A stretch of 63,724 nt of DNA, the filler included, from Jimgerdemannia flammicorona (Eukaryota), in NCBI GenBank assembly GCA_003990765.1. It is 3 parts of 3 records of this genome, joined end to end, with 100 filler letters (N's around TTAATTAATTAA, not from the genome) between each part and the next. Parts side by side here need not be neighbours in the genome. Positions count along the whole stretch, not along the records: positions 42,559 to 63,724 come from RBNJ01001511.1; 2 more parts are not named here. One strand, 5' to 3'. Positions within the stretch are counted from its first letter, which is position 1. Each line of letters opens with the position of its first letter. Of the stretch, positions 133-61,548 are shown one piece after another. Both the position numbers and the translations under genes were made by a program. The notes beneath the pieces are model-generated. The model saw only the letters and a program-made list of their open reading frames with translations, did no database searches and was not told the DNA's origin.

Positions 133-957
133 GTAGAGACTTATATTTGACTGCTTTTTTTTGAAAGAGACTAGACTTGTAGAGGTCTCAGGATCTTTAT
201 CATAAAGTAGCTAAAAGAGAGAAAGACCAGTAGATAATTAGACAGTATTATTATATATAAATTCTATATAAGTCAAGTAATGGCTCCAATCTTCTTACTT
301 ATAAGAAATATAGTTTCTGAGCATTTATTTTAGAGTTCTATTCATGCATTTGGTTTATCTATTAGTTTGTAGATAGAAGTGACCAATTGGATTCTCAGAG
401 TTTTGAAGAGAGTTTACCAGAAGTAACTGGTGAACTTGGGATCATAGTTACTGACAATTACTCATAGTAAGTTATAGTGATAAAAGATAGACTTAGAGAA
501 GATTCTTGTAATCTCAAGTATAGTAGTATTGATAGTGATGGATTCAGTAACTATAGTCTTGATCAGATAGTCAATGAATATGATGATAGCATTAGTATCA
601 GATTGAGTTCATGGTAGTTGAGTTATAAAGTCCATTATAACTTATTCAAATTTCTTAGTTGGAATTGACTGTAAGCACACAACCTTCAAGCCACTGAAAT
701 CACATGTCACCCTCTGAACAAGCCACTAAAATCATGCATGACAGTTGAACAAATCTAGAAATCACCTGCTCAATCATGAAGCTGAGTCAAATCAAAGTCA
801 CAGTGCACAAAGCTGAGTCAATATAAAGTCACAGAACATAAGATTTATATAAACAGAATCTTACCAATCAGGACCAAATGCATATACCAAGCACTAAGAT
901 GTATTGAAACAGAGAACTAAAACAAACAACAACCACAACTTTTGAACATATATAAAC

Positions 958-2055
958 ATGACCACTGAGATCTACAACCACATCTGTGCTAACATTTGGA
1001 ATGCTATTGTCAACTGAGTCACACCCCCTTTGTCCCTCATGAATATCCATAGCTTAGCACTCCTCTACTTTGTAGAAGTCCAATAAAATGCTCTGAACAT
1101 GCTTAGTGAAACCCACTGAATCAGACAAATCTCAAGCTACTACCAGATCAGCTATCTCTTAGAAGATATGGTCAAACACCATCATGATACAGATATTATC
1201 CAGATATCTCAACACCAGAAACTCATTGCTCATAAACATCAAGAACTCTTCTATGAATACAGTACCTTTATTCTCTACCTCCAAGTTACTACTGCCAAAA
1301 TGATTACTACTCTATCCTATGGCCAGATAGATGACATAATATAAGAACTCAACCATAAGTATCTCAAGTACATTCAGACTACAGACAGAACCTTCCCATA
1401 CCCTAATGACTATATTCTGCAAATGCCCCAAGTTGGATACACTATAAAAGACATCTACAATATAATCTGATTCAATGAGAACAAAGCAGAAGACAATGAT
1501 CCCTCTGATGCCAACATGACCTCAAGCTAAGGATCTCTACCAACTCTGATCACTCTGCCAACCTTGCCAATAAACTTGCAATAGTTCATAACCACCTATG
1601 AAACTTATTAGAACAATGACCACTGGTATAAGTACCAACTCACATTCACTTCTGATTACTTCAACTATAATAAAGAGACTGGAGAACACAATCTGTACCT
1701 CCAGACAACTCTCAAGATTGAACCAACCACTCCACTACCCAAGTACAAGCAATATGAACCACAGCTGCCAGCTTACTACAACCCTATGACTCATAGTGCT
1801 GTAACCTATAGAAGATATGCAGACAGTGAATTCGATGAAAGCAAAGATGATGCACCACTCCTTTGCCTATCAACTTCATACTCAGCATATGAGACAGATG
1901 ATACTATTCTGTAGAATAGTGATAAAGTCTCAATATATTACTACCTTAGCAAATAAAGAGAATTAATTTACAAATAACTTTTTCTAAATGATTACTTTAT
2001 TAGAGATGATATTATTGATAGTAATATCATTGAAGACTATCCAGACAATGTCTAA
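958..2055 (+). pseudogene. LTR(U3)-encoded ORF, decayed copy (1098 nt)
   Basis: Starts MTTEIYNHI and ends ...IEDYPDNV*. Same length as the copies at 13081-14178 and 54379-55476. Stops are explained by C>T/G>A changes. Confidence 0.8.
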
Positions 2056-2244
2056 ATCTATAAATAGCTTAGTAGTCATAGTATAGTTAGATTAGCCTTA
2101 TATGACATAACTGTGAACTGACTCAGCAATCAGACAATCTCTTGATATGTCAGATTACATTTATACTATGTGGCTGTATTTCAACTCAGCAAAGCATTAA
2201 GTGTTATACCCATATTCAGCATAGCCCAGATAGCCCCTCACTAG

Positions 2245-2381
2245 TATAAATACCCCCTCCTTCAGACCTCAGAATCTTAGACTTGAAGACTCAAATACAC
2301 AAGAACATTCTTGAACACTTCTCTATAATATCCCTTTATACAACTACTCCTAGTATAGTAATATCATGAATAGTGAATAAA
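2245..2381 (+). promoter_or_regulatory. LTR TATA box (TATAAA 2245-2250) and polyadenylation signal (AATAAA 2376-2381)
   Basis: The CTAGTATAAATACC context is conserved in type A and type B LTR copies. AATAAA lies ~130 nt downstream, the typical U3/R arrangement. Confidence 0.65.
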
Positions 2382-2996
2382 CCTATTTAATAATCTACAA
2401 ACTACTTTTAAGTAAATCTACTCTCTGTTAGGTCCCACTTCTAACCTTATTATGAAATTTCCTAATTAAGTATTGTCTACAGTAATATGCCAATTCAACT
2501 AAGCTGACTTTAGTTTCTTGAACTTCCTGAAATATGGAAAATCCTGAATATCTAGAACTAGTCTGAAAAAGGACTTTGGTTGAGACATCAATTTAATCTT
2601 GAAATTAATAAGTGTAGAGAATATACTCCATATGAAATTGATCTTGACCATAAGAAAACAGTCTTCCAGAATATCCAGAACTTCCTGAAAACTCTTTCAG
2701 AACTATGTAATGGTTACCTTAATAAGTAACCCTCTTACATTGACAGTAATTATAGCAAACTAACTAGTACTTGGTTGGTAAATTTGTTATACTAACAGAG
2801 GTCATAGCTAGTAATATAGTTTTTGATTTTCTTATCCATACTTGGCCAATAGTAGTGATGCTGGATATTCTTGATAGTTTTCTTAATTCCAAGATAACTA
2901 ATAAGTAGAGAGTTATAGTATTCTTACAGTATCTTATAGTATAGATTTATATTATCAGATAGGTGGACTTTGTCTTAATAGTAGATCAAATTATCC

Positions 2997-12408: not shown

Positions 12409-13080
12409 TGTAAAAGGGTTACTTTTTAGGGTAACCGTTACGTAGTTCTGAAAAGGTTTTCTGGATATTCTGGATGTTCTAGAAGACCGTTTTCTTATAG
12501 TCAAGATCAATATCATATGGAGTATGTCCTCTACGCTTATTGATTATTAGGTTGATATCTCAACCAAAGTTCTTTTCTGGACTAGTTCTGGATGTTCAGG
12601 ATTTTCTGTATTTCAGGAAGTTCAAGAAACTAAGACCAGCTTAGTTGAATCGGCATATTGCTGCAGACAATACCCAATTAGGAAATTTCGTGATAGGGTT
12701 AGGAGTGGGACCTAACAGAGAGTGGATTTACTTAAGAGTGGTTTGTGAGTTATTTGAATAGGTTTATTTGCTATTCATGATATTGCTATACTAGAAGTAG
12801 TTGTGTAAAGGAATATTGTAGGGAAGTATTCAGGAATGTTCTTGTGTATTTGAGTCTGAGATTCTGAGATCTGGGGGAGGGGGTATTTATACTAGTGAGG
12901 GGCTATCTGGACTATGCTAGATATGGATGTAGCACTAAGTGCTTTGCTGAGTCAGAATGCAGTCATATAGTACAAGTATGATCTGACATATCAAGAGATC
13001 GTCTGACTACTGAGTCAGTTCACAGTCATGTCATATAAGGCTAATCTAACTATACTATGACTGCTAGGCTATTTATGGGT

Positions 13081-14178
13081 TTAGGCGCTGTCTGGGTAGT
13101 CTTTGATGACATCACCATCGATTGCATCATCTCTGATGAAGTAGTCATCTAGGAATAATGGTTCACGGATTACTTCTCCTTGTTCACTGAGGTAATAGTA
13201 TATTGGAACTTCATCTCCATCCTACAGGATAGCATCGTCTGTCTCATATGCTGGATAAGGTGTTGGTGGGCGAAGGAGAAATGTATTGTCTTCACTTTTA
13301 TTGGATTCGCTATCTGCATACCTTCTATAGGTTACAGCACTATGAGTTGCGGGGTTATAGTATGCTGGCAGCTGTGGTTCATGTTGCTCATACTCGGGTG
13401 GTGGGGTGGTTGGTTCGATCTCGAGGATTGTCTGAAGGTACAGGTTGTGTTCTCTGGTCTCTTCATTGTAGTTAAAGTAATCGGAGGTGAATGCGGGTTG
13501 GTATTCATGCCAGTGGTCATTGTCCCAATAAGTCTCGTATGCTGTTATGAACTGTTGTAAGTTCATTGGCAGGGTTGGCGGAGTGATCAGGGTTGGCAGA
13601 GATTCTTGACTAGAGGTCATGTCAGCATCAGAGGGATCATTGTCTTCTGCTTCATCTTCATCGAAGTGGATTATATTGTAGATGTCCTTTATGGCGTATC
13701 CAACTTGGGGCATTTGCAGAATGTAATCATTGGGGTGGGGGAAGGTTCGGTCTGTGGTTTTGACGTACTCGAGGTACTTCTGGTTGAGTTCTTGTATCAT
13801 ATCGTTGATTTGGCCATAGGACAGAGTTGCAACCATTTTGCTAGTAGTAACTTGGAGGTGGAGAATAATGGTGCTGTACTCGTAGAAGAGTTCTTGATGT
13901 TTGTGGGTGATGAGCTTCTGGTGTTGAGACATCTAGGTAATGTCTGTATCATGGTAGTGTTCAACCATGTCTTCTAGGAGGCAGCTGATCTGATAGAAGC
14001 TTGAGATTTGTCTGATTTGGTGGGCCTTGCTAAGTATGTTCAGAGCATTTCATCGGGCTTCTACAAAGTAGAGGGATGCTAGGCTATAGATATTCATGAG
14101 GGGCAGAGGGGGTGTGGCTCGGTTGACAATGGCATTCCAAATGTCAGCGCAGATATGGTTGTAGATCTCAGTGGTCAT
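13081..14178 (-). pseudogene. LTR(U3)-encoded ORF, copy in the 3' LTR of chromovirus copy 1
   Basis: 1098 nt in frame. Track ORFs 14050-14313 and 13222-13932 are parts of it; stops arise from transitions. Confidence 0.85.
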
Positions 14179-14645
14179 GTTTGTGTATTTGGAAGTTGTG
14201 GTTGTTGTTTGTTTTGGTTCTCCGATTTGATGCATCTCGGTGCTCGGTATATATACATTTAGTCCTGATTGGTAAGATTCCATTTGTGTAAATCTTGTGT
14301 TCTGTGACTTCATATTGACTCAGCTTTGTATACTGTGACTTCGGTTTGACTCAGCTTCATGATCAAGCAGGTGATTTCCAGATTTGTTCAGAGGTCACAT
14401 GTGATTTCGGTGACTTGGAGGTTGTGCGCTTACAACTCTCCCCTTCTTAGCTTTCAATGTTCTCATCAGGGTCTTCTAATTTTTTCAGTAATATAGAGAG
14501 AATAGACTTGCTTTCAGTTTCACCCTTTTTCCAGAGGGTCAGTATTCTTGTCTTGTTTTGCTGAGTTCTTGGTTTGGTTTGCAATGATTATAATGTTCAG
14601 AAGGATAATATATAGTATATATGGATAGATGTGGAGTATTTGGTT

Positions 14646-21610: not shown

Positions 21611-21698
21611 TTACCAGGGACGAAAAGCGCCGCGGTGGGATTGGGTGGCGGCCGCTCTACAAATATATCTGGATTCACTTTATTTCTCTTTTATAGTT

Positions 21699-21699
<1 letters not shown>

Positions 21700-21746
<47 letters not shown>
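21700..21746 (+). repeat. (TAA)n microsatellite
   Basis: About 15-16 perfect units. Confidence 0.97.
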
Positions 21747-21749
<3 letters not shown>

Positions 21750-42558: not shown

Positions 42559-42581
42559 AAAAAAAAAAAAAAAAAAAAAAA

Positions 42582-44237
42582 GGGATATTGTGGGGAAGTG
42601 TTCAGGAATGTTCTTGTGTGTTTGAGTCTGAAATTCTGAGGTCTGGGGGAGGGGGTATTTATACTAGTGAGGGGCTATGTGGACTATGCTAGATATGGAT
42701 GTAGCACTAAGTGCCTTGCTGAGTCGGAATGCAGTTACATAGTACAAGTGTGATCTGACATGTTAAGAGATCTTCTGACTGCTGAGTCAGTTCACAGTCA
42801 CATCGTACAAGGCTAATCTAACTATACTATGACTGCTAGGCTATTTATGAGTTTAGGCACTGTCTGGGTAGTCCTCGATGACATCCCCATCGATTGCATC
42901 ATCTCTGATAAAGTAGTCGTCTAGGAAGAGTTGTTTGCGGATTACTTCCCCTTGTTTGCTGAGGTAGTAATACATTGGGACTTTGTCCCTATCCCACAGG
43001 ATAGCATCATCTGTCTCGTAGGCTAGATAAGGTGTTGGTGGACAAAGGATGGGTGTGTTGTCTTCACTTTCATTGGATTCGCTGTCTGCATACCTTCTAT
43101 AGGTTACAGCACTATGAGTTGCAGGATTATAGTAAGCTGGTGGCTGTGGTTCATGGTGCTCGTACTCAGGTGGTGGAGTGGTTGGTTTGATCTCGAGGGT
43201 TGTCTGGAGGTACAGGTTGTGTTCTCCGGTCTCTTCATTGTAGTTGAAGTAATCAGGGGTAAATGCGGGTAGGTATTCGTGCCAGTGGTCATTGTCCCAA
43301 TAAGTCTCATATGCTGTTATGAATTGTTGTAAGTTCATCGGCAAGGTTGGCAGTGTGATCAGGGTTGGCAGAGATCCTTGGCTAGAGGTCATGTCAGCAT
43401 CAGAGGGATCATTGTCTTCTGCTTCATCTTCATCGAAGTAGATTATATCGTAGATGTCTTTCATGGCGTATCCAACTTAGGGCATTTGCAGGATGTGATC
43501 ATTGGGGTGCGGGAAGGTTCTGTCTGTGGTTTCGACATATTTGATGTACTTCTGATTGAGTTCTTGTATCATATCATCGATTTGGCCATAGGACAGGGTA
43601 GCAACCATTTCACTGGTAGTAACTCGGAGGTGGAAAATAATGGTACTGTACTCGTAGAAGAGTTCTCGATGTTGTGGGTGATGAGCTTCTGGTGTTGAGA
43701 CATCTGGGTAATGTCTGTATCATGGTGGTGTTCGACCATGTCTTCCAGGAGGTGGCCGATCTGGTAGTAGCTTGAGATTTGTCCGATTCGGTGGGCCTTG
43801 CTAAGCATGTTCAGAGCATTCCATCGGGCTTCCACAAAGTAGAGGGGTGCTAGGCTATGGATATTCATGAGGGGCAGAGGGGGTGTAGCTCGGTTGACAA
43901 TGGCATTCCAAATGTCAGCATGGATATGGTTGTAGATCTCAGTGGTCATGTTTGTGTGTTTGGAAGATGTGGTTGTTGTTTGTTTTGGTTCTCTGATTCG
44001 ATGCATCTCAGTGCTCAGTATATATGCATTTAGTCCTGATTGGTAAGATTCCGTTTGTGTAAATCTTGTGTTCTGTGACTTCGTATTGACTCAGCTTTGT
44101 GCACTGTGACTTCAGTTTGACTCAGCTTCATGATCAAGCAGGTGATTTCCAGATTTGTTCAGAGTGGCGTGTGATTTCAGTGGCTTATTCAGAGGGTGAC
44201 ATATAATTTCAGTGGCTTTGGGGGTTGTGCGCTTACA
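42582..44237 (-). mobile_element. Type A LTR (5' or solo), truncated at left by a poly(A) tail, nested in an older LTR
   Basis: Ends GCGCTTACA at 44237 with no adjacent PPT. Contains the U3 ORF at 42853-43949 (1097 nt, one frameshift). Preceded by an A-run at 42559-42581. Confidence 0.9.
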
Positions 44238-47200
44238 GTTATACTGGATATAGGAAGAGTCTATCTATAGTTTGGATATATATAGTTGAGTTCTTACACT
44301 ATATTGTCAATTTGGCTATAAGTCAGAGTGATAACTATTTCAGCAATAGTAACTTGAAGGCAGAAGATAAAGGAGCTATACTTATAGTAGAGTTATTAGT
44401 ATTTATAAGTATTAAGTTCTGGTGTTGAGATATTTCAGTAATATCTATATCATAATAGTGGTTAACTATATCTTTCAGGAGACAGTCAATCTAGTAGTGG
44501 CTTGAGATTTATCTAATTTGGTAGGTCTCACTAAGTATATTTAAGATAATCCAATAAACTTCTATAAAATATAGAGATACCAGATTATAGATATTTATGA
44601 GATACAGAGGAGCTATAGCTCAATTGCCAATAGTATTCCAAATATCAGCACAGATATAACTGTAAACATTGGTTATCATATCTAGGTATGTATTTGAGAA
44701 TTGTGGTTGTGGTTTTAGTTTATTGTGATTCTTTATTTTGATATACTACATATTTAGTATATATACTTTCAGTCTTATTTGATAAGGTTCTATTTTCATA
44801 TATTTGTATTTCATGACTTTAAGTTGACTCAGCTTTATGATCTGTGACTTTGGTTTGACTCAGCTTTATGATCTGTAACTTTGATTTGACTCAGCTTCAT
44901 GATCTATAACTTTGGTTTAACTCAGCTTTATAATCTTGTATATAATTTCCAGATTTGTTCTAAGAGTAATATGTAATTTCAATGGCTTAAAGATTATATG
45001 CTTACAATTCTCCCCTTTTTAGTATTCAATATCCCTATTAAGGTCTTCAAATTTAGCTAATATTGTTGTACCATTTGGATGATCAAAAGTTCAGTAATAT
45101 TCTTTTTTCTCAGAAAGTAATATGCTTATAATACAGCTGTCTAATACATTGAATTTATATATTAAAGATTCATACATTTAATACTGTATATCAGAAGTAA
45201 TTTTAATATCATTCACTGCTGGAGAATTTCCTCTAAGAAATCTTTTTAAATATCTTCACCTTGTTCTCACCAGTGATAAGGGAAGAATCAACTGCTTTCA
45301 GTTTTACTATTTTTCTAAAAGATCAATATTTCTTTTTAACTTAATTTGTAGAGATGTGGCTGAGGTTTCTATTTTGTTTATGATAATTATAAGAATACTT
45401 TTAACAGTATTCAGAAGGGGTAAAATATAGTATAGAAATAATAGGTATTAGAGTATTTAGACTAGTTATTCAAAAAATCATATTCTTGAACTAAGTTGGC
45501 AATATTCTGAAGATTTATTCCGGATTTCCATAGAGTATCATGGATTGGGTAATTCTTCCATTTGATAAGATATTCTAAGTAGCTCTTATGGCCATATTTG
45601 TTGAGAATTTGTTTGGCTTTATATTCTTCTTAGTTATTAATAATAACTAGTATTAGTGGTTCTATAGTTTGATTTCAGAATAGTTTATCATCATTTTAAT
45701 TATATTACTTGAGATATTGAACATTGAAGACTGGATAAATCTTGATGATATCTGGTAGTACTAATTTATAGAATTTTAGGGAAATTTGTATGATAACTTT
45801 GAATAGCCTAATGAACTTACTCTTGAGCTTTATAGAGAGTCTATGCTTAAGATGTTAACTCAGTATTCTCAGATATCTAGTAGAACTTTTTCTCTGATAT
45901 CAAAAGTTTCCTCTTAGTAGTACTGGTTGACATACTGAGATTGTTGCTTTTGGACTCAAGATAAATTCTCAATTGCAATCTGGCTTAAGTTGCACATTTA
46001 GAGTAAAAATTCTTCAATAGCTTCAAAAGTGGAGAGTTCATCAGTAGTTCTGATAAGGGTCAGAGAGGTGTTAAGATTTTTGTCCTGTATTGGCAAAGAA
46101 TAGAGTCATTCCAAGAGAAGCTTGTTTGCTATTGTTGTAAGTAAACTCAACTGTAGTAAGATATTTATACTAATTATCTTATATATAGGAAATATAGTTC
46201 TTAGCATTTGCTTCAAAGTTTGGTTTATTCTTTTAGTTTGTCTATCAGTTTCAGAGTGAAAGACTGTGGATAGTGCTAGTTTCATTCCAAGGTATAAGTA
46301 TAGTGCTTTCTAAAAATGGCTAGTGAATTTTGAGTCTAGATTACTAATAATAAACTTAGGAAGATCATGATAGTAAAAGATATTATCAAATAAGAGTATA
46401 GTAATTTTAGATACTATTGCAGCTATAGTAGTAGATACAAAGTGAGCTTGTTTGCTAAGATAATCTATGAAGAAAATAATTATATCTTTTCCATTCTTAG
46501 TTTTGAGTAGTTGTACAATAAAGTCTATAGATATTGATTTTCAAAGTAGATAGTACTGGTATAAGATAGAGTAGTTCAGGTTTTGATAGAGTTAAGAACT
46601 TATTATATTGGTAGTTATTATAAGAAGTAATGAAGGTTTTTAACTAATCTCCCATATAGGGCCAATAGAAGTTTTGTTAAATAACTTTATAACATTTATC
46701 ATATTTTAGATATTCAACTGTAGGGGTATTAACAGAATAGTCCTTCAAAGGTCTCAATTGTTAGAAATATACAATTTATCCTTATAATAGATAGTATTGT
46801 CTTTTAATTAGTATTAATGATACTGGGAGTACTTGTTAATATCAACACTGCTCAGGAATTCTCAGAGTACTTGAGCTTCATTATCATCAGTATATACTCT
46901 AATAATTTATTTTATAATAGAGTTAGTAACCAAGGTGAGAGTTTGTATAACTTCTTCAATTGGTGGTCTAGAGATTGCATTGATGACAATATTTTCCTTA
47001 TCAAGTAGTATTGGATTTTATAGTGAAAATTGGTAAGGACTTTTATCCATCTAGCTTGCTTTTAGAAAAGAGTAGCCTGGGTCTTAATATTGATTAATGA
47101 TTTATAGTCTGTTAATATAGTGAAGTGTACTTCTTTAAAGTATATGTACCATTTGATCAGAGTATCCACAATGGCTAATATTTCCTTCTCATTAGTGATA

Positions 47201-47819
47201 TAGTTAATTTTAGCGAGGTTTGGTGAAATGGGTATAGTTAATTTTAGTATCATTAAACTTACACAACAGTATGTCCCTTTTGCATAAGTACTGCTCTAAG
47301 AGCTAGGTCAGATATATCAGTAGTTACTTCATATAGTAGGGCAGAATTTACTACTTGAAGTGCTAGAGTAGTTATCAGAGTATTTTTCAAGACTTCAAAG
47401 GCTACATCTTGTTTAGATCTCTATTTAACAAGATTGTTGAAGTCTTTTTCTTGTTTTGTAGTCTAAGGTTGTCCTTTCTTTTTACTATACTTAGTCAGTT
47501 GAGTAAGAGCAGTAGCAATCTTGATAAGGTTTTCAATAAATTATCTATTAATAGTTTGCTAGTCCTAGGAATGACTAAAGGTCATTTAGCTTCTTAAGTC
47601 CAGGCTATTTCTTGATTGTGGAGATTTTTCTGGAGTCTATTTTGATTCTATTGGAAGTAACAATATATCTAAGGAATTGAATTTTCTTTAGAAAGAATTC
47701 ACATTTACTAGGTTTCACGAAAAGTCAGTTTTCTTCAAGCTTCAATAATACTAGTTAAAGATGTTAAAGATATTCCTCTAGGGTTTTGCTGAAGATCAGA
47801 ATGTTATCAATATAGACAA
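44238..47819 (-). mobile_element. Older, heavily decayed chromovirus copy (partial 3' LTR to 45006, PPT, chromodomain-IN-RH-partial RT)
   Basis: CTTACA at 45001-45006 followed by the PPT; colinear with 55735-58510. Confidence 0.88.
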
Positions 47820-50800
47820 TATAAGTGCATAACCTTCAAGCCACCAAAATCATGTCATCCTCAGAACCAATTTGGAAACCACATGTGAGACTACAAAACA
47901 AGTTACTGAAGAGATCATCTGGTTACACAAAATATACCAGCAAGCATGAGAACCTACTGCTAAGACATAAGAATATCAGAAGAAGTACTACAACCAAAAG
48001 ACTGACTCTAAACCTCTATAACTAGTTTGATATACTGTACTATTACAAAAGGAAACTGAAAGTACCAAACTCAAACCGAGACAAGAAAAATCCTATCTCA
48101 TCCATCAAAGGTTCATGAACTACACTTATCAACTCAAGACTAAGATATACTGCAACTATACAAAGACCTCATTACTTAGCAGAAGCAAAATTTATTTGAA
48201 TAACCCCATTTGCTCTATCTGTATCACCTCCATTGGAGAATGACAGACACTTTATCTGAACTCAAGAAAGCCAACATTGTCAAAACCAATCTCAAGCCCA
48301 TCCATGTGAAAGATATTACTACTAGAAATTGCCTCAGATTATAGAAAATATTATTTCTGAGAGGTTCGAACCCCCAGCCACAACATTGAGAGCCCTTGCC
48401 CTAGACAAGAATGGCCAGTTCTCACAAATGTATCAGTAGCTCAAAAAAAAAGAGAACCAAGACCTATTATTCTTGTACAACCACTACTACTGAGAATAGC
48501 CATAATTTTGCAAGGGACAGAGGTAATGACATCATTGAAACTGATGACATCAGAAGTCAGAAAACTGCTCAGACTTTACCAGAGATGATGTCATCAATAG
48601 TGATATCATCAAAGACTTACCAGATAGCATCTAAATCTATAAATAGCTTAGCAGTTATAGTATAGTTAGATTAGCCTTATATAATGTAACTGTGAACTAA
48701 CTCAGCAGTCAGACAATCCCTTGACATATTAGATCACACTTATACTACATGACTGTATTCCGACTCAGTAAGATACTAAGTGCTATATCCATATCTAGTA
48801 TAGTCTAGATAGCCCCTCACTAGTATAAATACCTCCTCCCCCAGACCTCTGAATCTCAGACTTGAACAATCCAAACACAACTCCTGAGCACTTCCCCACA
48901 ATATCCCTTGATACAAATACTCCTAGTATAGTAATAACATGAATAGTGAATAAACCTATTTAATAATCTATAAACCACTCTAAAGTAAATCCACTCCCCA
49001 TTAGGTCCCACTTCTAACTCCATCACGAAATTTCCTAATTGGGTATTGTCTGCAGTGATATGCCAGTTTAACTAAGCTGGCCTTAGTTTTTTGAACATCC
49101 TGAAATATGGAAAATCCTGAACATCCAGAACTAGTCCAAAAAGAGACGTTGGTTGAGATGTCAACCCAATTTTGAAATCAATAAGTGTAGAGGACATACT
49201 CTATACAAAATTGATCTTGACTATAAGTAAACAGTCTTCTAGAATATCCAGAACTTCCAGAAAACCCTTCCAGAACTACATAATGGTTACTCTAACAAGT
49301 AACCCTCTTGCAACTTGATAGCAGTGGTTTACAATCCAATTCTGCTTCAAGGTGCTTCCTCACCCCACTACAAACCCTTCTGAGAATTCCTACAAGTTGG
49401 TATAAAGTCCAATCTCTGAACTGGAATTTATCCTGAACTATCTGATAATCTGGAGAGAATTGAACCTGACATATAAGAACAATTTAACCTCCACACCTAT
49501 AACAAGTGGGATAAACTCATTTGAAAAAAGAAGTACTCTAGTTAAATCAGCAGATAGGCAAAACCCTATATACTGAACTCCTTGTACTACACCCAGTAAG
49601 TCAAGATAAAGAAGGTCTTATCAGAGTCTTCTTTACTCTCCTCAATAAGAGTGTTGTCAGCTCCACAAATCTAAGCAACATAGGATAACTATCAGCAGTC
49701 TTTCTAGCCTTAGTTCCTCATGAAGCCCAAGTCTCTATAGCCAAGTGGCTCAACTCTACCAATTTTCACCATACCAGGACCAAAACTGTATTATACTACT
49801 GATTCCAGAACTGCAAGGTCTGCCATATTCTTAAGGAAGAAGCAAGGGAAACTCTCTGCCAACAACCTGACTCCAAACCAGAAGCAGGCACAGCTATAGC
49901 CCTACCTGAACCCAAAACCAATACTGAACCAGAACTTGACTTTGAATTAAGTCCATCTGAAATCAGATATATAACTGATTCTGTCTACTTTGACGCTGAG
50001 CAAACCCAATTATATGGGGACCAACCCGAAGAGGAGGAGGAGTATCTCAGTGAATTTGATCCCAGATATACTATCAAAGGAGATGCACCTCCATCAGGAC
50101 AGAATATACACATACAGCAACAGATAGCTATCTATTGAGCCCTCACTCCAGACCCACAACTACTACTCCAGCAACTTACACAGACTCAAAGAACTCCATC
50201 ACACTCTGCACCAGTACCTCAAGTAGTACCAGTAACACCACTATCATTAGTCCAACTGCCTCTAGTAAACAACATAGCAAACCAACAGATTCTAGACCTT
50301 ACAGCCCAGATAGCCATAATGGCAGCAACCATTACTGCCTTAGCTAAACAGACCTGACCAACCAAAAATCTGAGCCTATCTACCTTCAATAGTACTGCAC
50401 AAGAAGTCCAAAGCTTCATTAGTATAGTTGACACTCACCAACTTCGACTATAAAATCCAGTATCAGTCTGGCAAGGAAAATATCATTGCCAATATAATCT
50501 CCAGACCACTAATCAAAGAAGTTATCCAAACTCTCACCTTGGTTACAAACTCTATCATAGAACAAATTATCACAGCATGTACTGATGATAAGTAAGCTCA
50601 AGCACTCTGAGAAATCCTGAACAGTGACGATGCTGACAAGCATACTCAGTACCATCAATACCAACTGAAGGACAGTACTATCTACTACAAGGACAGATTG
50701 TATGTTCCAAATAACTGTGACTTCTGAAGGACTATCCTATTTGAATATCATGATGCCCCTATAGCTTGACATTTAGGATTTGACAAATGTTATAATGTTA

Positions 50801-53754: not shown

Positions 53755-54378
53755 TGTAAGAGGGTTGATCTTTAGGGCAACCGTTACATAGTTCTGGAAG
53801 GGTTTTCTGGAAGTTCTGGATATTCTGGAAGACCGTTTTCTTATGGTCAAGATCAATTTCGTATAGAGTACGTCCTCTACACTTATTGATTTCAAGATTG
53901 GGTTGATGTCTCAACCAAAGTCCTTTTTCGGACTAGTTCTGGATGTTCAGGATTTTCCGTATTTCAGGAAGTTCAAGAAACTAAGACCAGCTTAGTTGAA
54001 TTGGCATATTGCTGCAGACAATACCCAATTAGGAAATTTCGTAATGGGGTTTAGGAGTGGGACCTAACGGAGAGCGGATTTACTTAAGAGTGGTTTGTGG
54101 GTTATTAAATAGGTTTATTTGCTATTCATGATATTGCTATACTAGGAGTAGTTGTGTAAAGGGATATTGTGGGGAAGTATTCAGGAATGTTCTTGTGTGT
54201 TCGAGTCTGAGATTCTGTGGTCTGGGGGAGGGGGTATTTATACTAGTGAGGGGCTATCTGGACTATGCTAGATATGGATGTAGCACTAAGTGCCTTTGCT
54301 GAGTCGGAATACAGTCATGTAGTACAAGTGTGATCTGACATGTCAAGAGGTCATCTGACTGCTAGGCTATTTATAGAT

Positions 54379-55476
54379 TTAGGTGCTGTCTGGGTAGTCT
54401 TTGATGACATCACCATCGATTGCATCATCTCTGATGAAGTAGTCATCTAGGAATAATGGTTCGCAGATTACTTCTCCTTGATCGCTGAGGTAAAAATACA
54501 TTGGAACTTCATCTCCGTCCCACAAGATGGCATCATCAGTCTCATATGCTGGATGAGGTGTTGGTGGGTGAAGGAGGGGTGCATCATTTTCACTTTCATC
54601 AGATTCACTGTCTGCATACCTTCTGTAGGTTACAGCACTATGAGTCGCAGGGTTATAGTAAGCTGGTGGCTGTGGTTCATGTCGCTCATACTCAGGTGGT
54701 GGAGTGGTTGGTTCAATCTCGAGGGTTGTCTGGAGATACAGGTTGTGTTCTCCAGTCTCTTCATTGTAGTTGAAGTAATCGGGGGTGAATGCAGGTTAGT
54801 ATTCATGCCAGTGGTCATTATCCCAATAGGTCTCGTAGGTAGTTATGAACTGTTGTAAGTTCATCAGCAAGGTTGGCGGTGTGATCAGGGTTGGCAGGGA
54901 TCCTTGGCTGGAGGTCATGTTGGCATCGGAGGGATCGTTGTCTTCTGCTTCATCTTCATCGAAGTGGATTATATCGTAGACATCCTTCATGGCATATCCA
55001 ACTTGGGGCATTTGCAGGATGTGATCGTCAAGGTGCAGAAAGGTTCTGTCTGTGGTTTCAACGTACACAAGGTACTTGTGGTTGAGTTCTTGTATCATGT
55101 CGTTGATTTGGCCATAGGACAGGATAGCAACCATTTCACTGGTAGTAACTCGGAGGCGGGAAATAATGGTACTGTACTCGTAGAAGAGTTCTCGATGTTT
55201 GCAAGCGATGAGCTTCTGATGTTGAGACATCTGGGTAATGTCTGAGTCATGGTGGTGTTCAACCATGTCTTCCAAGAGGCGGCCGATCTGGTAGTAGCTT
55301 GAGATTTGGCCAATTCGGTGGGCCTTATTAAGCATGTTCAGGGCATTCCATCGGGCTTCCATGAAGTAGAGGGGTGCTAGGCTATGGATATTCATAAGAG
55401 GCAGAGGGGGTGTGGCTCGGTTGACAATGGCATTCCAAATGTCAGCACGGATGCAGTTGTAGATCTCGGTGGTCAT
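54379..55476 (-). CDS. LTR(U3)-encoded 365-aa ORF, best copy (single in-frame TAA at 54796-54798)
   Basis: MTTEIYNCIRADIWNAIVNRATPP...DDYFIRDDAIDGDVIKDYPDST*, translated by hand through the stop. The copy at 13081-14178 has CAA at this codon. Confidence 0.85.
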
Positions 55477-56161
55477 GTTTGTGTGTTTGGAAGTTTGTAG
55501 TTGTTGTTTGTTTTGGTTCTCTGTTTCGACGTGTCTCGGTGCTCGGTATATATACATTTGATCCTGATTGGTAAGATTCTGTTTGTATAAATCTTATGTT
55601 CCGTGACTTCGTATTGACTCAGCTTTGTGCACTGTGACTTCAGTTTGACTCAGCTTCGTGATCAGGCAGGTAATTTCCAGATTTGTTCAGAAGGTGACAT
55701 GTGATTTCAGTGGCTTGGAGGTTGTGCGCTTACAACTCTCCCCTTCTTAGCTTTTGACGTCCTCATCAGGCCTTCTAATTTTGTTCTAGTGTTGTTACAC
55801 CATTTGAGAGGTCAAAAGTCCAGTGAAGTCCATATTTCTCAGAAAGTGGCATGCTTGTAGAACAGTTGCCTAATGCATTGGATTCACATGTTAAAGGGTC
55901 ATGTATTCAATGCCGTGCGCCAGAAGTGATTCTGATGTCATTCACTGCTGGAGAATTTCCTCTGAGGAATCTTCTTAAATGTCTATGCCTCGTTTCCCAC
56001 CAGTGGTATGGGGAGAATAGGCTTGCTTTCAGTTTTGCTATTTTTTGCAGAGGGTCGGTATTCTTGTCTTGTTTTGCTGAGTTCTTGATTTGGTTCGTGA
56101 TAATTATAATGTTCAGGAGGTAATATATAGTGTGTACTGATAGGTATCAGAGTATTCGGTT

Positions 56162-59100
56162 CTAGTTGTTCAAGGAATCATATTCCTGAACTAGGTCAGT
56201 AGCATTCTGGAGATTGATCTTGGGTTCCCATGTTGCATCATGGATCGGATATCCTTTCCATTTGACAAGGTACTCGGGGTGGTTCTTGTTGCCACGTTTG
56301 TTGAGGATCTGTTCAACTTCGTACTCTTCTTGATCATTAATGATGACAGGTGCAGGTGGTTTGGTAGTTCGGTTTGGAAATAGTTCATCATCAGTGTCAT
56401 TGTATCGCTTGAGACATTGAACACTAAAGACTGGGTGAATCTTAATGGTGTCCAGTAGCGCCAGTTTGTAGGAGGTTGGAGAGATTTGTGCAATGACTTC
56501 AAATGGTCTGATGAACTTGCTGTTCAGCTTTGTAGATGGTCTGTATTTGAGGTTGTCAACTCAGTATCCTTGGATGTCTAGTAGAAATTTTTCTCCAATA
56601 TCAAAGGTTTCCTCTCGGCGGTATTGGTTAACATACTGTGACTGTTGTTCTTAAGCTCGCAATAAATTCTCAATTGCGATCTGGCTCAGGTTATGCATTC
56701 GGAGCAGGAATTCTTCAACAGCTTTGACTGTGGAGGGTTCTTCGGTAGTTCAGATGAGTGTCAAAGGGGTGTTTGGATTTTGTCCAGTGTTGGCAAAGAA
56801 TGGAGTCATTCCAAGAGAGGCTTGCTTGCTGTTGTTGTAGGCAAACTTGACTGCAGTGAGGTGTTCATGCCAATCATCTTGTTTATAGGAAACTTAGTTC
56901 CTTAGCATTTGTTCCAGAGTTCGGTTCATTCTTTCGGTTTGGCCGTCAGTTTCAGGGTGAAAGGCTATAGATAGTGCAAGTTTCATTCTAAGGTGTACAT
57001 GGAGGGCTTTCCAAAAATGGCTGGTAAATTTTGGGTCTTGGTCACTAACAATGATTTTAGGAAGGCCATGATAGCGGAAGATGTTGTCAAACAAGAGTGT
57101 GGCTATGTCTGGTACTGCTGCAGTAGTGGTAGTAGGCACAAAGTGGGCTTGTTTGCTGAGATAGTCCACAAAGACAACAATTGCATCTTTCCCATTCTTG
57201 GTTTGGGGTAGTTGTACAATGAAGTCCATAGAAATTTGTTCCCAATTTGCAGATGGTACTGGGATAGGGTGGAGTAGGCCAGGTTTTGCTAGTGTTGAGG
57301 ACTTGTTTCATTGGCAGGCATCACAGGAAGTGATGTAGGTCTTGAGCTGATCTGCCATGTGGGGCCAATAGAAGTTTTGGGAAATAACTTCATAGCATTT
57401 GTCAAATCCTAAATGTCCAGCTATAGGGGCATTATGACATTCGAATAATATAGTCCTTCGGAGGTCTCGGTTGTTTAGAACATACAGTCTGTCCTTGTAG
57501 TAGATAGCATTGTCCTTGAGCTGGTATTGATTGCACCGGGTATGCTTGTCAGCATCATCATTGTTCAGGATTTCTTGGAGTGCTTGAGCTTCTTTATCAT
57601 CAGTGCATGCTGCGATGATTTGTTCCATGATAGAGTTTGTGACCAAGGTGAGAGTTTGGATGACTTCTTCAATGGGTGGTCTGGAGATTGCATCAGCAAC
57701 AATGTTTTCCTTGCCGGGGCGGTACTGGATTTTGTAGTCAAAGTTGATGAGGACTTTCATCCATCTGGCTTGCTTTCGAGAAAGGGTAGCCTGGGTCTTG
57801 TTGTTGACTAATGACTTGTGGTCAGTCAATATGGTGAAGTGTGCTCCTTCTAGGTATAGTCGCCATTTGATCAGAGTGTCTACGATAGCTAGCATTTCCT
57901 TCTCATGAGTTGCGTAGTTGATTTTAGCATTGTTGAACTTGTGGGAGTGATAGGCCACAGGGTGTCCTTCTTGCATGAGCACTGCTCCAAGAGCTAGGTC
58001 AGAGGCATCAGTAGTAACTTCATATGGTAGGGCAGGATTTGCCGCTTGAAGTACTGGGGTAGTTATCAGGGCGTCCTTCAGTGCTTGAAAGGCTGTATCT
58101 TGTTAGGGTCCCCAATTTACAAGATTGTTGAAGTCTTTCTCTTGTTTCATAGTCCAGGGTTGTTCTTGTTTCTTGCTGTGCTTGGTCATTTGGGTGAGGG
58201 CAGTAGCGATTTTAGCAAAGTTGGCAACAAATCGCCTGTAATAGTTTGCTAATCCCAGGAATGACTGGAGGTCTTTCAGCTTCTTGGGTCTGGGCCAGTC
58301 CTTGATTGCAGAGATTTTGCTAGGGTCCACTTTGATTTCATTTGGGGTGACAATGTGTCCAAGGAATTGAATTTCCTTTAGGAGGAATTTACACTTGCTG
58401 AGTTTTGCAAAGAGTCAGTTTTCTCGGAGTTTCAGTAGTACTAGTTCAAGGTGTTCGAGATGTTCCTCTAGGGTTTTGCTGAAGACTAGGATGTCATCAA
58501 TATAGACAACAATGAATTTGTCCAAGTATGGGTGCAAGATAGTATTCATTAGGGTCTGGAAGGTTGCAGGAGCATTAGTTAAGCCAAAGGGCATAACCAG
58601 GAACTCAAAGTGTCCATAGCAGATTCAGAAGGCTGTCTTGTAGATATCTTCTTTCATGGCAATTTGCCAGTAACTGTTTCGCAGGTCAAAAGGCATGAAT
58701 TGTGGGTTGGTGAGCCTATCGAATATTTCATCAATCCTCGGTAGTGGGCAACAGTTCTTGATGGTCTGTTCATTGAGATCACTGTAGTCAATGCACATTC
58801 GCAGGTCTCCTCCTTTTTTGACAACAAAGAGGACTGGTGCACCATAGGGTGATACACTGGGTCTGATGAATCCTTGTTCTGGGAGTTCATCAATTTCTTT
58901 CTTGAGTGCATCAATTTCTCTCGGAGACATGTGGTAGATTGATTTGAAGGCTGGTTTGGCATCTGGGATAGTCTTGATGGAATGGTCTACTGCTCGTTTA
59001 GGAGGTAGGCCTTTTGAGAGCTTCTTTGGGAATATGTCTCGGAATTTCTGGAGTAGTGGTCTGACACAGCTATCAACTTTGGAAAAGTCTTCTTCAGAGT

Positions 59101-61375
59101 TCTTGGGTTCTCCTTTGGATGGACAGATGGAGATAGTAAAGAGAGGGCATTTTTTGGCCAATTTCTTGAGTTGTAGCTTGTTGATATGAGTGATCTTTGG
59201 TCCAGGGTCACTAGAGTTGAGTGAGTCCTTTTCGCCTTGTAGTTTGAAGTTGTGGCGTCCTTTCTTGATGGTCAGAGAATGGTTTACCCAATCAATCATG
59301 GGGTTCTCTTGTTTTAACCATGGAGTCCCAAGGATGATTTCATTGTCAGGAAGTGGTACAATTTGGAGGGTAATATGTACTCGGTAGTTGCCAATTCGGA
59401 AGGGTAGATTGCAGACTTCTTTACTAATAACATGTGAGGTTCCATCAGCTGTAGCAACTGCTTGAGTTTGCTGTACTGGAGAGGTGAAAACCTTGAGTCT
59501 GTTGGCTGTTTCCTCATTGATGAAGTTGCCTGAGGCACTACTGTCTATCATAATCTTGACAGGAGCTCCATTGACAAAAGCCTTAAGGGTAAGCAGTTTG
59601 TCTGATCCAATGGTAGTGATTTCGGTTGTAGGAGCTTTCCTTCTGTTGGTTCTTCTTTGAGCCAGTTTGTTGACACAAGAGAAGCAGTCATCAATCATTC
59701 GGGAAGAGTACACTCCAATGCCATGGAGACATTGGCCACTTGGTATATATCCATCTTCGATTTTCTTATAGAATTGTTCTTCTTTGTTCATGGTAGGTTG
59801 GGCTGGGGCCTTGGTTGATGAGCCAAATCCTTTGGATCCTTGGATGGTGGGCAGTAGTTCAGGGACTTCTTTGACTGTCAGGGTTGACTCGATTTTTTCG
59901 AATAGGATCTGGGCAATGCAGAAACCGATAGAGATCTTGAAGAGTGTCCAACTGTGGTTTCGGATGAGAACAATAATTTCACCTGTGTAATCCTCATCAA
60001 TGACTCCTCCTTCTACTGAGAGTCCTTTCAATGCTAAGCTACTGCAATAGCATATTCTTCCAACATATCCTTCAGAAATTTGGATACTGATTCCTGTATA
60101 GACTTGCTTGACTTCTTGGTTTGAAACTGTAGCTTCTTCGGCTGCATACAGGTCATATCCAGCTGCTTTTTGACTTCCTTTGGTTGGAGCCTTGGCAGTT
60201 TGCCTTAACTTGACAAAGTCTAGTGTTCTGGTGGTCAGGTTATTGAGGTGGTGCAGGGTGGTAACAGTTGCTCATGTTGCTGTTCTGGGTTTTTGGTTGG
60301 GGCAGGCACTGGCCATGTGTCCTGTCTTTCGACAATAGAAGCATGCTCCACTTCTTCAAAGTTCGTTCCTTTCTCCTTCAGTTAGTTTCTTGAAGATACT
60401 CGGCTGGGTGGGTTTGTGATTTCTGGGTGTCCAAGATGTGGATGTGGAGGGAGCTCGGGATGCTTCGTGCTTGGGTTCTTCTTTCTTGGTCCAAGTCTTT
60501 TCCTTGTTGTTAAATTGTCTTCAGGGCAGAATTGGTCCAGCTGTTAGGATTCACTTGACTATGATCTTGATTCTTGTCAGGCACCATTGTTGGTGATCGC
60601 AACCAACTGGGCGGCCTTGTTCTCGGATTTTTCTAGTAAGCCATTCAGGCAGTGCATCGAATAAATGGTCTGCTCTTGTACCATTTCATGCTTCATCATT
60701 GGCAATATATCCTAGGCCAACAGTGTTCAGGAGTGACTCGAGTTTTGTACAGAAGGTTTTGAATTCTTCTTTGCCATGTATATCAAATTTGAGGTTGCAT
60801 AGTTTTACTCAAGATTCAGCAATCATGGTTTCGCTGCAGTATTGAGCAATCATAAGTTGTTTGAGTCCAGGGGCTGCAGGATGGGTTCCATATCCTGGGG
60901 CATTGTTTGCTGCATTCTGAGCAACTACTGCAGGTCGGGTGTCCCATGTGAGGGGTTTTTCAGGAAGAGTTCGCCACCATTCTTCCGCAGGTCCTCAGAA
61001 GAATGTAACAACTCAGCGGACATAGGCTGTAGTGGTAGCAAAGAGTTGTTCCAGAGTGTGGTCTTGATTGTTTGTCAGAACGCGGTCAGCAACTCGCTCA
61101 TTGGTCCATTGATTGGCTTCGAAGTTGGTGTCAACTACACTAATGAAGCTTTGGACTTCTTGTGCAGTGCCATTGAAGGTAGGTAGGCTCAGATTTTTGG
61201 TAGGTCTGGTCTGCTCGGCTAAGGCAGTAATGGTTGCTGCCATTATAGCTATCTGGGCTGTGAGGTCTAGAATCTGTTGGTTTGTCATATTGTTTACTAG
61301 AGGCGGTTGGACTACTGGTAGTGGTGTTACTGGTACTACTTGAGGTACTGGTGCAGAGTGTGAGGGTGTTCTTTG
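56162..61375 (-). pseudogene. gag-pol: gag-dUTPase-PR-RT-RH-IN-chromodomain polyprotein
   Basis: Zinc knuckle CFYCRKTGHMASAC (~60302-60343) in frame with dUTPase, protease (IDS[G]ASG), RT (YIDD at ~58493), RNase H, integrase (HHCC, MDF...ETDGQTER) and chromodomain. Confidence 0.93.
59813..60225 (-). CDS. dut: dUTPase domain within the retrotransposon polyprotein
   Basis: Trimeric dUTPase motifs I AGYDL, II GRI..(R)SSLA (decayed), III GVIDEDYTGEI, IV (R)IAQ and V (R)GSKGFGSS. Confidence 0.92.
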
Positions 61376-61548
61376 GTGGACTCCTTTTGCTCGAACCATT
61401 CAGAGCAAGCTAAGCCACACGGACATCTTTTCGCGACAAGCAACACGTTTTCAAGTATTCCCGTCGTCTATTCTGGTGTACAAGGTGCGGCAGGAGTCTA
61501 GCTACTACATTCAACAAGTCTCATCTATTTTGGTGGAGTTTTCGTTGG

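Follow-up and report, generated by a model that had tools for sequence, protein, structure and literature searches.

Within a window of 63,724 nucleotides from the Jimgerdemannia flammicorona assembly (the whole stretch of DNA analysed, filler included), we found that the ~2-kb LTR of a chromodomain Ty3/gypsy retrotransposon holds a 365-codon sense-strand reading frame whose changes have been filtered as in coding sequence. Taken as a whole, the observations are best explained by a genuine protein-coding accessory gene that belongs to this chromovirus family and lies wholly in U3, a reading to which we give a probability of about two in three. The usual view holds LTRs to be control regions without coding function, and solo LTRs to be inert relics or stray promoters. 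We read the frame as an extra retrotransposon gene placed inside the LTR, unlike the known ones beside gag-pol, and analogous in position to sag of MMTV. A search of the open-access literature for LTR-located ORFs of retrotransposons returned only MMTV and unrelated uses of the phrase.

A reading frame inside the LTR of a chromovirus

In the copy of the element designated C, the frame occupies the minus strand, which is the sense strand of the element, and measures 1098 nt with its terminal stop. The frame, its LTR and the related structures of the window are as follows.

54379..55476, minus strand: copy C of the 365-codon LTR frame; start codon (ATG) at 55474-55476, a single internal stop (TAA at 54796-54798, codon 227), terminal stop at 54379-54381
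53755..55734, minus strand: 3' LTR of chromovirus copy C, 1980 nt; start TGTAAGC at 55734, end ...CCCTCTTACA at 53755
55735..55748, minus strand: polypurine tract AAGAAGGGGAGAGT, immediately 5' of the copy C LTR
54233..54244, minus strand: main LTR TATA box AGTATAAATACC, downstream of the frame
56165..61279, minus strand: copy C gag-pol, read as a single 1705-codon frame interrupted by 16 stops
12409..14434, minus strand: 3' LTR of chromovirus copy A, containing the frame copy 13081-14178 with 3 internal stops
42579..44237, minus strand: LTR copy A2, with the frame copy 42853-43949 inside it (1 internal stop and a frameshifting 1-nt deletion)
670..2739, plus strand: solo LTR c1, containing the frame copy 958-2055 with 11 internal stops; TTGAC at 665-669 and 2740-2744

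The LTR ends are of the TG...CA type (TGTAAGC...CTTACA in four copies). Its 5' start adjoins the polypurine tract in the copies that follow pol (at 55734 in copy C, 14434 in copy A and 52429 in the 3' LTR of a further element, D), and the 3' end ...CCCTCTTACA lies at 53755, 12409 and 2739. The domain order in copy C is CCHC knuckle, dUTPase, protease, RT, RNase H, integrase, SH3-like and chromodomain. On the read-through frame 61279-56165, Pfam placed zf-CCHC at residues 312-328, dUTPase at 362-488, protease at 559-675, RVT_1 at 821-977, RT_RNaseH at 1056-1180, Integrase_H2C2 and rve at 1270-1442 and Chromo at 1653-1701, bearing out the gag-dUTPase-PR order of the preliminary description. In its LTR ends, polypurine tract, PR-RT-RNase H-INT-chromodomain order and target-site duplication, the carrier fits a Ty3/gypsy chromovirus. 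Outside the chromovirus copies, the Pfam scan covered 62 of 90 further stop-to-stop ORFs of at least 85 aa, the other 28 being left out as overlapping or already scanned, and matched no Pfam family.

The ATG of the frame lies 258 nt after the LTR start; the pol frame, which runs in the same direction, ends 686 nt before it, at 56165. Frames of 1098 nt recur at 13081-14178 (minus strand) and 958-2055 (plus strand), and the copy at 42853-43949 (minus strand) measures 1097 nt owing to the 1-nt deletion, in agreement with the lengths first reported. The TATAAATA box follows the frame stop by about 189 nt in three copies, as the earlier figure of ~190 nt had it, and by 135 nt in copy C, which that figure does not fit and where there is a 54-nt deletion. 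The frame is thus wholly within the LTR, upstream of the main TATA box. Because this box lies downstream of the frame, we infer from position that the frame belongs to U3, and the U3/R border is likewise placed by inference; a frame in U3 would therefore be copied into both LTRs at each transposition and remain in solo LTRs. The LTR at 670-2739 qualifies as such a solo LTR, because it has no adjoining pol and carries TTGAC, a 5-bp target-site duplication, on each side. No other copy has unrelated DNA at both ends, and this one confirms the proposal that the frame, wholly in the LTR and upstream of the TATA box, is left behind in solo LTRs. LTR copy A2 is truncated at its 3' end, has no adjoining pol or polypurine tract and sits inside a B-type LTR. 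No complete element with two ORF-bearing LTRs is present in the window: copies A and C, both with pol, are cut near their 5' ends, before the 5' LTR, by LINE-like insertions or an assembly gap.

None of the four copies in the window is intact, each carrying a stop or a frameshift. Fourteen codons bear stops, 12 of them in a single copy and two (codons 43 and 319) in both c1 and A, and at all 14 a sense codon is kept in at least two copies. Stops therefore differ between copies, with none found in all, as the preliminary description had it; its claim that they revert by single transitions holds for most and fails for codons 43 (in c1), 171 and 340, which need more than one change. With no stop shared by every copy, their ancestor appears to have had an open frame. 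In copy C, the frame has suffered less than gag-pol, with a stop density of 1 in 365 codons versus 16 in 1705. Among the polarised private changes, C>T and G>A together make up 204 of 296, with CpA the commonest context (107 of 204), and every copy in the window is now dead through decay dominated by these two classes. RIP was considered as the decay process and was not called, since all four CpN contexts are hit.

The frame changed as coding sequence during family diversification

We considered whether the open frame could be a non-coding by-product, either of an A/C-rich sense strand or of constraint on the DNA or RNA of U3. A sense strand poor in T and G does lower the frequency of stops, and one antisense frame of copy C has just 6 (the antisense frames hold 6, 25 and 22, and the other two sense frames 15 and 33). 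Composition falls short of the observation, however: of 2000 dinucleotide shuffles, each scored by its best frame out of three, none came below 7 stops, and hence none reached one or zero. The distribution of changes along the frame also speaks against this account, which we hold to be very improbable. Third-position periodicity of variation is confined to this frame, and indels are depleted within it (1 event in 1098 ORF columns versus 12 in 983 columns of flanking LTR).

Selection was assessed by comparing private changes among the four copies with a context-matched expectation. Over all classes, 110 changes were synonymous and 113 non-synonymous or stop, where 71.1 and 151.8 were expected (omega 0.48, p = 5e-8); parallel hypermutation may have mislabelled some of these private changes, because their polarity rests on four copies only. 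The comparison without C>T sites that the preliminary description had proposed favours coding. With C>T and G>A removed, 47 private changes were synonymous and 24 were not, against expectations of 19.7 and 51.2 (omega 0.20, p = 2e-11), and they fell on the three codon positions as 12:11:48. This 2.4-fold synonymous excess was found in this frame only and in neither shifted frame, for which omega was 1.14 and 1.55 when every class was counted, rising to 1.99 and 1.66 once C>T and G>A were excluded. Filtering was weak when C>T and G>A changes were taken alone (omega 0.72, p = 0.03).

The filtering can be set beside that of a known gene carried by the same two elements. When copies A and C are compared, differences in the LTR frame were distributed over the codon positions as 38:22:74 (71 synonymous, 63 not), and those in the dUTPase-PR-RT part of pol as 39:21:67 (67 synonymous, 60 not). 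During the diversification of the family, changes in the frame were filtered as in coding sequence, about as strongly as in pol. Comparison of copy C with contigs of two public runs (X1 and X6) gave, among the best-supported differences in the frame, 17 changes, 11 synonymous and 6 not; of 19 indel places, the 12 that were listed all fell outside the frame. We therefore consider it quite likely that the LTR frame is a gene formerly under purifying selection.

Divergence, frame-free LTRs and the question of capture

Filtering of this kind does not make the frame the most conserved part of the LTR. Its nucleotide p-distance between copies was 0.10-0.21 versus 0.06-0.15 in the flanking LTR parts, and transversions per site were 0.013-0.020 versus 0.000-0.014; being more diverged and richer in transversions, the frame is less constrained than the cis-acting parts of the LTR. 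Two further kinds of LTR in the window bear on its history.

44276..44679, minus strand: diverged, AT-rich frame remnant in the LTR of a related family, B, detected by tblastn and interrupted by the A2 insertion
47820..49312, plus strand: 5' LTR of the internally deleted element D, without the frame except its last 18 codons
52429..53754, plus strand: 3' LTR of element D, with the same polypurine tract before it and cut at 53754, where copy C ends

The B-type remnant is a fifth copy of the frame, diverged and truncated, with 52% identity across the first 90 residues. No indel occurs across those 90 codons, though the family B pol (45410-47819) is only 75% identical to that of copy C. Other changes in this comparison were distributed as 5:4:11 by codon position, with 8 synonymous and 12 not, a weak sample (n = 20). 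Element D retains both LTRs (47820-49312 and 52429-53754), which have the first ~100 nt and the last ~740 nt in common with the frame-bearing type; the sequence directly after its 5' LTR, where a tRNA primer-binding site would lie, is ACTTGATAGCAGTGG. Since the D-type LTR pair works without the frame, the frame is dispensable for being an LTR.

This last point would suit a passenger, that is, a piece of a host gene or of another mobile element captured in U3, open at capture and useless to the element. So would the greater divergence of the frame region relative to its flanks and the fact that all copies in the window are dead; the synonymous excess would then be a pre-capture inheritance, or stem from selection that acted on a handful of master copies and had nothing to do with the protein. 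We nevertheless judge capture improbable. The excess was measured on changes that arose within the LTR after the copies had diverged, so it cannot predate capture, and pol shows an equal excess in elements A and C. Moreover, the frame persists both in a family with 25% divergence in pol and in a homologue elsewhere that is 63% identical, and a host-type homologue is absent from 1.84 billion representative proteins, in which both matches are to this frame.

The encoded protein is an orphan

These two relatives are partial copies of the same frame. P0002, of 247 aa and from another assembly, where its contig measures 998 bp, shows 63% identity and 82% similarity across 250 residues and is open, with the same C-terminal motif at its end; P0003, of 128 aa on a 1180-bp contig, is 91% identical and likewise open. 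Their openness is partly ascertained, because the gene caller behind them reports open frames only. Pfam matched no family to the 365-residue protein at E <= 0.01, the best hit of a PDB profile search (E = 0.2) was meaningless, and the ESM Atlas gave a best score of 0.77, under any useful level, for the intact N-terminal 226 residues and no usable feature match for P0002 (TM <= 0.30). Searches of metagenome contigs for a related locus yielded 79 pattern matches, none a relative, and a degenerate 47-nt pattern for a conserved 16-residue peptide matched nothing in either metagenome or viral contigs. By these sequence and profile comparisons, the LTR-frame protein is an orphan with two partial homologues, as the preliminary description had suspected.

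The protein is hydrophilic (GRAVY -0.59). Its C-terminal 219 residues have a pI of 4.05, with 48 D+E versus 6 K+R, 18 Y and 23 P, which upholds the acidic, Tyr/Pro-rich C-terminal half described earlier. The helical N-terminal half described alongside it did not fare as well, as it was seen only in very-low-confidence AlphaFold2 models (mean pLDDT 31.6 with a 6-row alignment, and 46.5 with a 5-row alignment of the first 150 residues). Two PPxY motifs (PPEY at 260 and PPAY at 270) were considered as late domains and are not a firm lead, the motifs being absent from P0002 and c1.

Possible routes of expression

Upstream and downstream of the frame, copy C carries the following motifs.

55615..55652, minus strand: two TGAGTCA motifs (55646-55652 and 55615-55621) in a ~31-nt tandem repeat, present in all four copies
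55564..55571, minus strand: CCAATCAG, CCAAT-box-like, about 90 nt before the ATG
55546..55554, minus strand: TATATATAC, candidate TATA box of a putative ORF-specific promoter, about 70-78 nt before the ATG
54112..54119, minus strand: AATAAACC, likely LTR poly(A) signal

The TGAGTCA motifs, which we take to be similar to AP-1/bZIP sites, belong to repeat units that are more numerous in the diverged B-type LTR. CCAATCAG is identical across the four A-type copies and decayed in the B-type; TATATATAC is kept in C, A and the B-type, reads CATATATAC in A2 and is shortened in c1. Such promoter motifs are short, and TATA-like strings are found easily in AT-rich decayed DNA. From this arrangement, the upstream U3 module (the two TGAGTCA motifs, CCAATCAG and TATATATAC) would start an mRNA of ~1.4-1.5 kb that carries the frame alone and ends at the LTR's own AATAAA, with the downstream TATAAATA box starting the genomic RNA. 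Each LTR, solo LTRs included, would then be a self-contained transcription unit. We put the chance that the frame has its own promoter in U3, instead of depending on a spliced or read-through message, at slightly less than even.

The frame may instead be a real gene read in the manner of retroviral accessory genes, by splicing, read-through or re-initiation on the full-length RNA, with no promoter of its own. MMTV sag, the closest analogue, is in an LTR; the frame begins within the LTR past the end of pol and in the same orientation; and the U3 of the 3' LTR forms part of every genomic RNA in the transcription scheme of LTR retroelements, all of which would suit this route. The A/C-rich stretch before the ATG, on the other hand, shows no pyrimidine tract followed by AG, and the CCAAT and TATA motifs, which all four A-type copies keep, are spaced from the ATG much as in a promoter. 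Neither point is decisive, and we allow this route a real but minor chance; were it true, solo LTRs would be silent for the frame. Contigs of two runs with another organism label (X7 and X9, whose RNA origin is only a guess) cover the last ~400 nt of the LTR and a little of its first ~250 nt, with essentially no cover across 54420-55180. The missing cover is silent on expression and may simply reflect LTR types without the frame.

Comparison with known accessory genes

In MMTV, sag lies inside the LTR and is expressed mainly from spliced messages, and dUTPase comes next before protease. The frame resembles sag as a sense ORF of a few hundred codons wholly within the LTR, upstream of the TATA box and present in both LTRs, and the carrier shares the dUTPase placed just before protease. 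In one report, the open reading frame of the 3' LTR controls expression of the MMTV superantigen (PMC2118998). There is no sequence relation between Sag and the LTR protein, which matched 0 Pfam families and had a best PDB E of 0.2. Sag is a membrane glycoprotein of a vertebrate retrovirus and acts on T cells, whereas the LTR protein is acidic and hydrophilic and comes from an env-less chromodomain Ty3/gypsy element. The MMTV-like layout of the preliminary description thus stands as an arrangement, with an LTR ORF and dUTPase before PR, and does not extend to the protein, as no Pfam family, including the MMTV superantigen, matches it. The likeness to sag is one of position by analogy, not of membership.

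A second comparison is with the additional ORFs (aORFs) of LTR retrotransposons, Ty3/gypsy elements among them, each an extra family-specific gene of obscure function beside gag-pol and often an orphan. Extra ORFs are described from plants (PMC7264820) and bdelloid rotifers (PMC5408684); their known places are either ahead of gag, after the 5' LTR, or behind pol, ahead of the 3' LTR, on either strand. The main text of PMC7264820 contains none of five phrases checked for a position in the LTR, and PMC5408684 none of six. The LTR frame belongs with this class as a sense ORF beside gag-pol, found in four copies, one remnant and two outside homologues; unlike aORFs, it is inside the LTR and not in the internal region before gag or after pol. 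HIV/SIV nef and the bel/bet genes of foamy viruses, which are likewise accessory and 3'-terminal, also reach into U3. These genes merely overlap the LTR, whereas the frame is entirely within it and bears no sequence relation to them.

Proposed role and implications

For the kind of function that such a gene might have, we took VANC of Arabidopsis VANDAL21 as a model. VANC is a transposon-encoded orphan that lifts the silencing of its own family in trans; it serves as a model of function only, as it belongs to a plant DNA transposon and has no known sequence relation to the LTR gene. The LTR protein would be soluble and trans-acting; its helical N-terminal half would bind some partner, its tail would be disordered, acidic and rich in Tyr and Pro, and the protein would help its family, most likely by raising or protecting transcription from the LTR. 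With neither fold nor family to go by and acidic composition as its basis, this function is a guess, and we regard an activator or anti-silencing role, as the preliminary description had proposed, as possible but doubtful. The fullest version, in which every LTR would be a complete gene (activating repeats, CCAAT, TATA, ORF and poly(A) signal) for a trans-acting activator or silencing shield, a counterpart of sag by position and of VANC by function, seems to us unlikely. If it were true, the genome would become strewn, by transposition and by recombination between LTRs, with many expressed copies of one orphan protein, those in solo LTRs included.

Returning to the accessory gene as such, a selected gene in the LTR would be present in two doses per element and would survive recombination that deletes gag-pol, and solo LTRs could each supply a family-specific factor. 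A sag-type arrangement would then have arisen outside retroviruses too. Similar cases may be common and unseen, because genes of this sort disappear under repeat masking and seldom feature in the output of gene callers.

As to the carrier itself, dUTPase-bearing fungal chromoviruses include PosPlaTy3 of Postia placenta, elements of Phanerochaete chrysosporium and Tmt1 of Tuber melanosporum (PMC2864245). Like the element described here, they combine a chromodomain Ty3/gypsy organisation with a dUTPase, and one of the dUTPase positions listed in that source is the amino-terminus of Pol, as here. The closest relatives of the carrier's pol in the protein collection are 37-55% identical, and the named ones, from Chara, Haematococcus, Riccia, Trifolium and Tanacetum, are 29-39% identical.

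A 365-codon frame within the LTR of a chromovirus

The preliminary description had placed a conserved frame inside an LTR in four copies, and this was confirmed. In copy C, the frame lies on the sense strand of a chromodomain Ty3/gypsy element whose gag-pol runs, in order, through a CCHC knuckle, dUTPase, protease, RT, RNase H, integrase, SH3-like domain and chromodomain. The repeat starts directly after the polypurine tract, and it recurs, ends included, at three more sites in the window (copies A, A2 and c1).

Frame, carrier element and LTRs
54379-55476, minus: frame of copy C, 1098 nt, one in-frame stop
13081-14178, minus: frame of copy A, 1098 nt, three stops
42853-43949, minus: frame of copy A2, 1097 nt, one stop and a 1-nt deletion
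958-2055, plus: frame of copy c1, 1098 nt, 11 stops
61279-56165, minus: gag-pol of copy C, single frame, 1705 codons, 16 stops
55748-55735, minus: polypurine tract AAGAAGGGGAGAGT of copy C, downstream of the pol end
55734-53755, minus: LTR of copy C, from TGTAAGC to CCCTCTTACA
12409-14434, minus: LTR of copy A, behind a second pol
42579-44237, minus: LTR of copy A2, truncated, no pol alongside
670-2739, plus: LTR of copy c1, TTGAC on either flank
47820-49312 and 52429-53754: LTRs of D, a related, internally deleted element

Copies A and C are 91% identical over 5.2 kb, and c1 is a solo LTR, given TTGAC on both flanks. The polypurine tract of copy C also stands before the second LTR of element D; with its two LTRs and this tract, D shows the two-LTR structure directly, which identifies the repeat as an LTR. 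Within this LTR, the frame starts 258 nt from the beginning and stops 624 nt short of the end. A requirement of the frame for LTR function was ruled out by the frame-less D-type LTR, which has the first ~100 and final ~740 nt in common and carries ~680 nt of other sequence where the frame would be, retaining only its last 18 codons.

The ancestral frame was open and changed as coding sequence

All copies in the window are dead. Among the 14 stop-bearing codons, 12 were private to a single copy and two were common to two copies, and at all 14 positions at least two copies had a sense codon, which bears out the earlier claim that differing stops hide an open ancestral frame. The remaining two sense frames of copy C contained 15 and 33 stops, and the best frame in 2000 dinucleotide shuffles of this copy always held at least 7. 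The ancestor of the copies evidently had an open 365-codon frame that was not a product of composition.

Copies were compared column by column, without a consensus, and private changes were scored as synonymous, non-synonymous or nonsense against an expectation in which changes of each kind were placed anywhere in the frame with their dinucleotide context preserved.

Private changes in the frame (synonymous / non-synonymous plus stop)
All: observed 110/113, expected 71.1/151.8, omega 0.48, p = 5e-8
C>T and G>A only: observed 63/89, expected 51.4/100.6, omega 0.72, p = 0.03
All other: observed 47/24, expected 19.7/51.2, omega 0.20, p = 2e-11

With C>T and G>A left out, the comparison proposed in the preliminary description favours coding (omega 0.20); these other changes fell on codon positions 12:11:48, and the same computation in two shifted frames gave omega 1.14-1.99. 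C>T and G>A, which look like post-insertion decay, accounted for 204 of 296 polarised changes, polarity being only rough with four copies. Furthermore, we counted one indel event in 1098 frame columns versus 12 in 983 flanking LTR columns, and differences between A and C were distributed over codon positions as 38:22:74 in the frame and 39:21:67 in dUTPase-PR-RT of the same elements' pol. Two public runs, one from a soil metagenome and the other from 'organism A', had contigs with many related copies, where 11 of the 17 best-supported frame differences from copy C were synonymous and no indel fell inside the frame among 12 places listed of 19. Against coding stands the nucleotide divergence of the frame, which exceeds that of the LTR flanks, while comparison with a diverged remnant from the related family B (8 synonymous versus 12 not) was too small to count. 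These sequence comparisons give good support for a coding frame.

Promoter-like motifs around the frame

55646-55652 and 55615-55621, minus: TGAGTCA, twice in a ~31-nt tandem repeat, within the 258 nt before the ATG
55564-55571, minus: CCAATCAG, between LTR start and ATG
55546-55554, minus: TATATATAC, 70-78 nt upstream of the ATG
54233-54244, minus: main TATAAATA box, downstream of the frame
54112-54119, minus: AATAAA, downstream of the frame

TGAGTCA resembles an AP-1 site, and the other upstream motifs are a candidate CCAAT box and a candidate TATA box. The upstream motifs are kept in all four copies, degraded in c1, and the TATA-like motif and repeats are present in the diverged B-type LTR too. 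One LTR may thus hold two promoters, the first serving the frame. Alternatively, the frame could be read from a spliced or read-through message of the full-length RNA, which has U3 at its 3' end.

Just past the stop codon, copy C lacks 54 nt found in the other three copies (54364-54417 equivalent); TGACTCA motifs occur in A and c1 between the frame stop and the main TATA box. Contig depth, a poor measure, was concentrated at 53850-54230 (the final ~400 nt of the LTR, past the main TATA box) in X7 and X9, two small runs under another organism label whose RNA nature is a guess; in X1 (soil metagenome), summed depth of the whole LTR was, by the same poor measure, several-fold that of adjoining pol.

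Relatives and character of the protein

The family B remnant, the fifth in the window, sits in an LTR of that family, where pol identity is only 75%; it shares 52% protein identity with the frame over the first 90 codons with no indel. When 1.84 billion representative proteins of every length were searched, two matched: P0002 (247 aa), 63% identical and 82% similar over residues 115-364, open and with the same end point, and P0003 (128 aa), 91% identical. Since both come from short contigs, neither a fused nor a longer form is known.

The protein matched no Pfam family, PDB relative or Atlas neighbour. Of the two halves described previously, the helical N-terminal one is only weakly indicated because both structure predictions failed (mean pLDDT 31.6 and 46.5), and the acidic, Tyr/Pro-rich composition of the other holds: the C-terminal 219 residues have a pI of 4.05, with 48 acidic versus 6 basic residues, 18 Tyr and 23 Pro. 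Copies C and A2 have two PPxY motifs in the acidic tail (PPEY, PPAY; residues 260-273, window ~54658-54699, minus), whereas in A, c1 and P0002 at least one of the pair is missing or reads LPxY.

Membership in the MMTV Sag family was ruled out, as no Pfam family matches the frame, and the likeness to MMTV sag is one of position only. Extra ORFs of LTR retrotransposons are well known from plants (PMC7264820) and rotifers (PMC5408684), and abstracts and term searches of these papers yielded no mention of one inside an LTR. dUTPase-bearing chromoviruses have been described from fungi (PMC2864245), where a figure legend mentions an additional ORF of unknown function. A phrase search of open-access literature for LTR-located ORFs gave, among the matches listed, only MMTV or unrelated uses of the words. 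Within this literature, the LTR-internal placing reads as a variant on these known extra ORFs.

Neighbouring elements and decay

A Pfam-less protein of up to 659 residues occurs four times, at 28-42% identity (61414-63390, plus; 20166-20903, plus; 30453-31739, minus; 6957-7847, minus). The last-named occurrence is closely followed, on its own strand, by an endonuclease (5730-6458) and a reverse transcriptase (4245-5051), so the protein probably represents the first ORF of a LINE-like family whose sense strand is rich in G. Both frame-bearing chromovirus copies are interrupted near the gag start by a LINE-like 5' end in opposite orientation; the cut points (19680/19681 and 61375/61376) lie 183 nt apart in element coordinates, through either coincidence or target preference.

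Element D (47820-53754), with both LTRs of the frame-less type, has a junction near 50372-50434 between the gag start and the final ~2 kb of pol. Family B pol (45410-47819) encloses D, whose 3' LTR breaks off at 53754, precisely at the end of copy C; the result is a three-level nest. Between the 5' LTR of D and the stretch matching the gag leader of copy C lie ~870 nt (49313-50186) that match nothing else in the window and represent either a leader of unusual length or a further insertion.

Two N runs around TTAATTAATTAA (21236-21285; filler between joined records) adjoin ~350 nt of degenerate C-rich short repeats (21286-21650; CCCACCCGAACC / CCCGTAACCCC on the minus strand), followed by an (ATT)n run at ~21700-21760.

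Decay differs greatly among copies (958-2055 and 44276-44997). C>T and G>A make up 130 of 159 private changes in the solo LTR c1, the B-type LTR region 44276-44997 has ~30% G+C, and such changes are few in A2 and C. Each of the four CpN contexts is affected, CpA most often.
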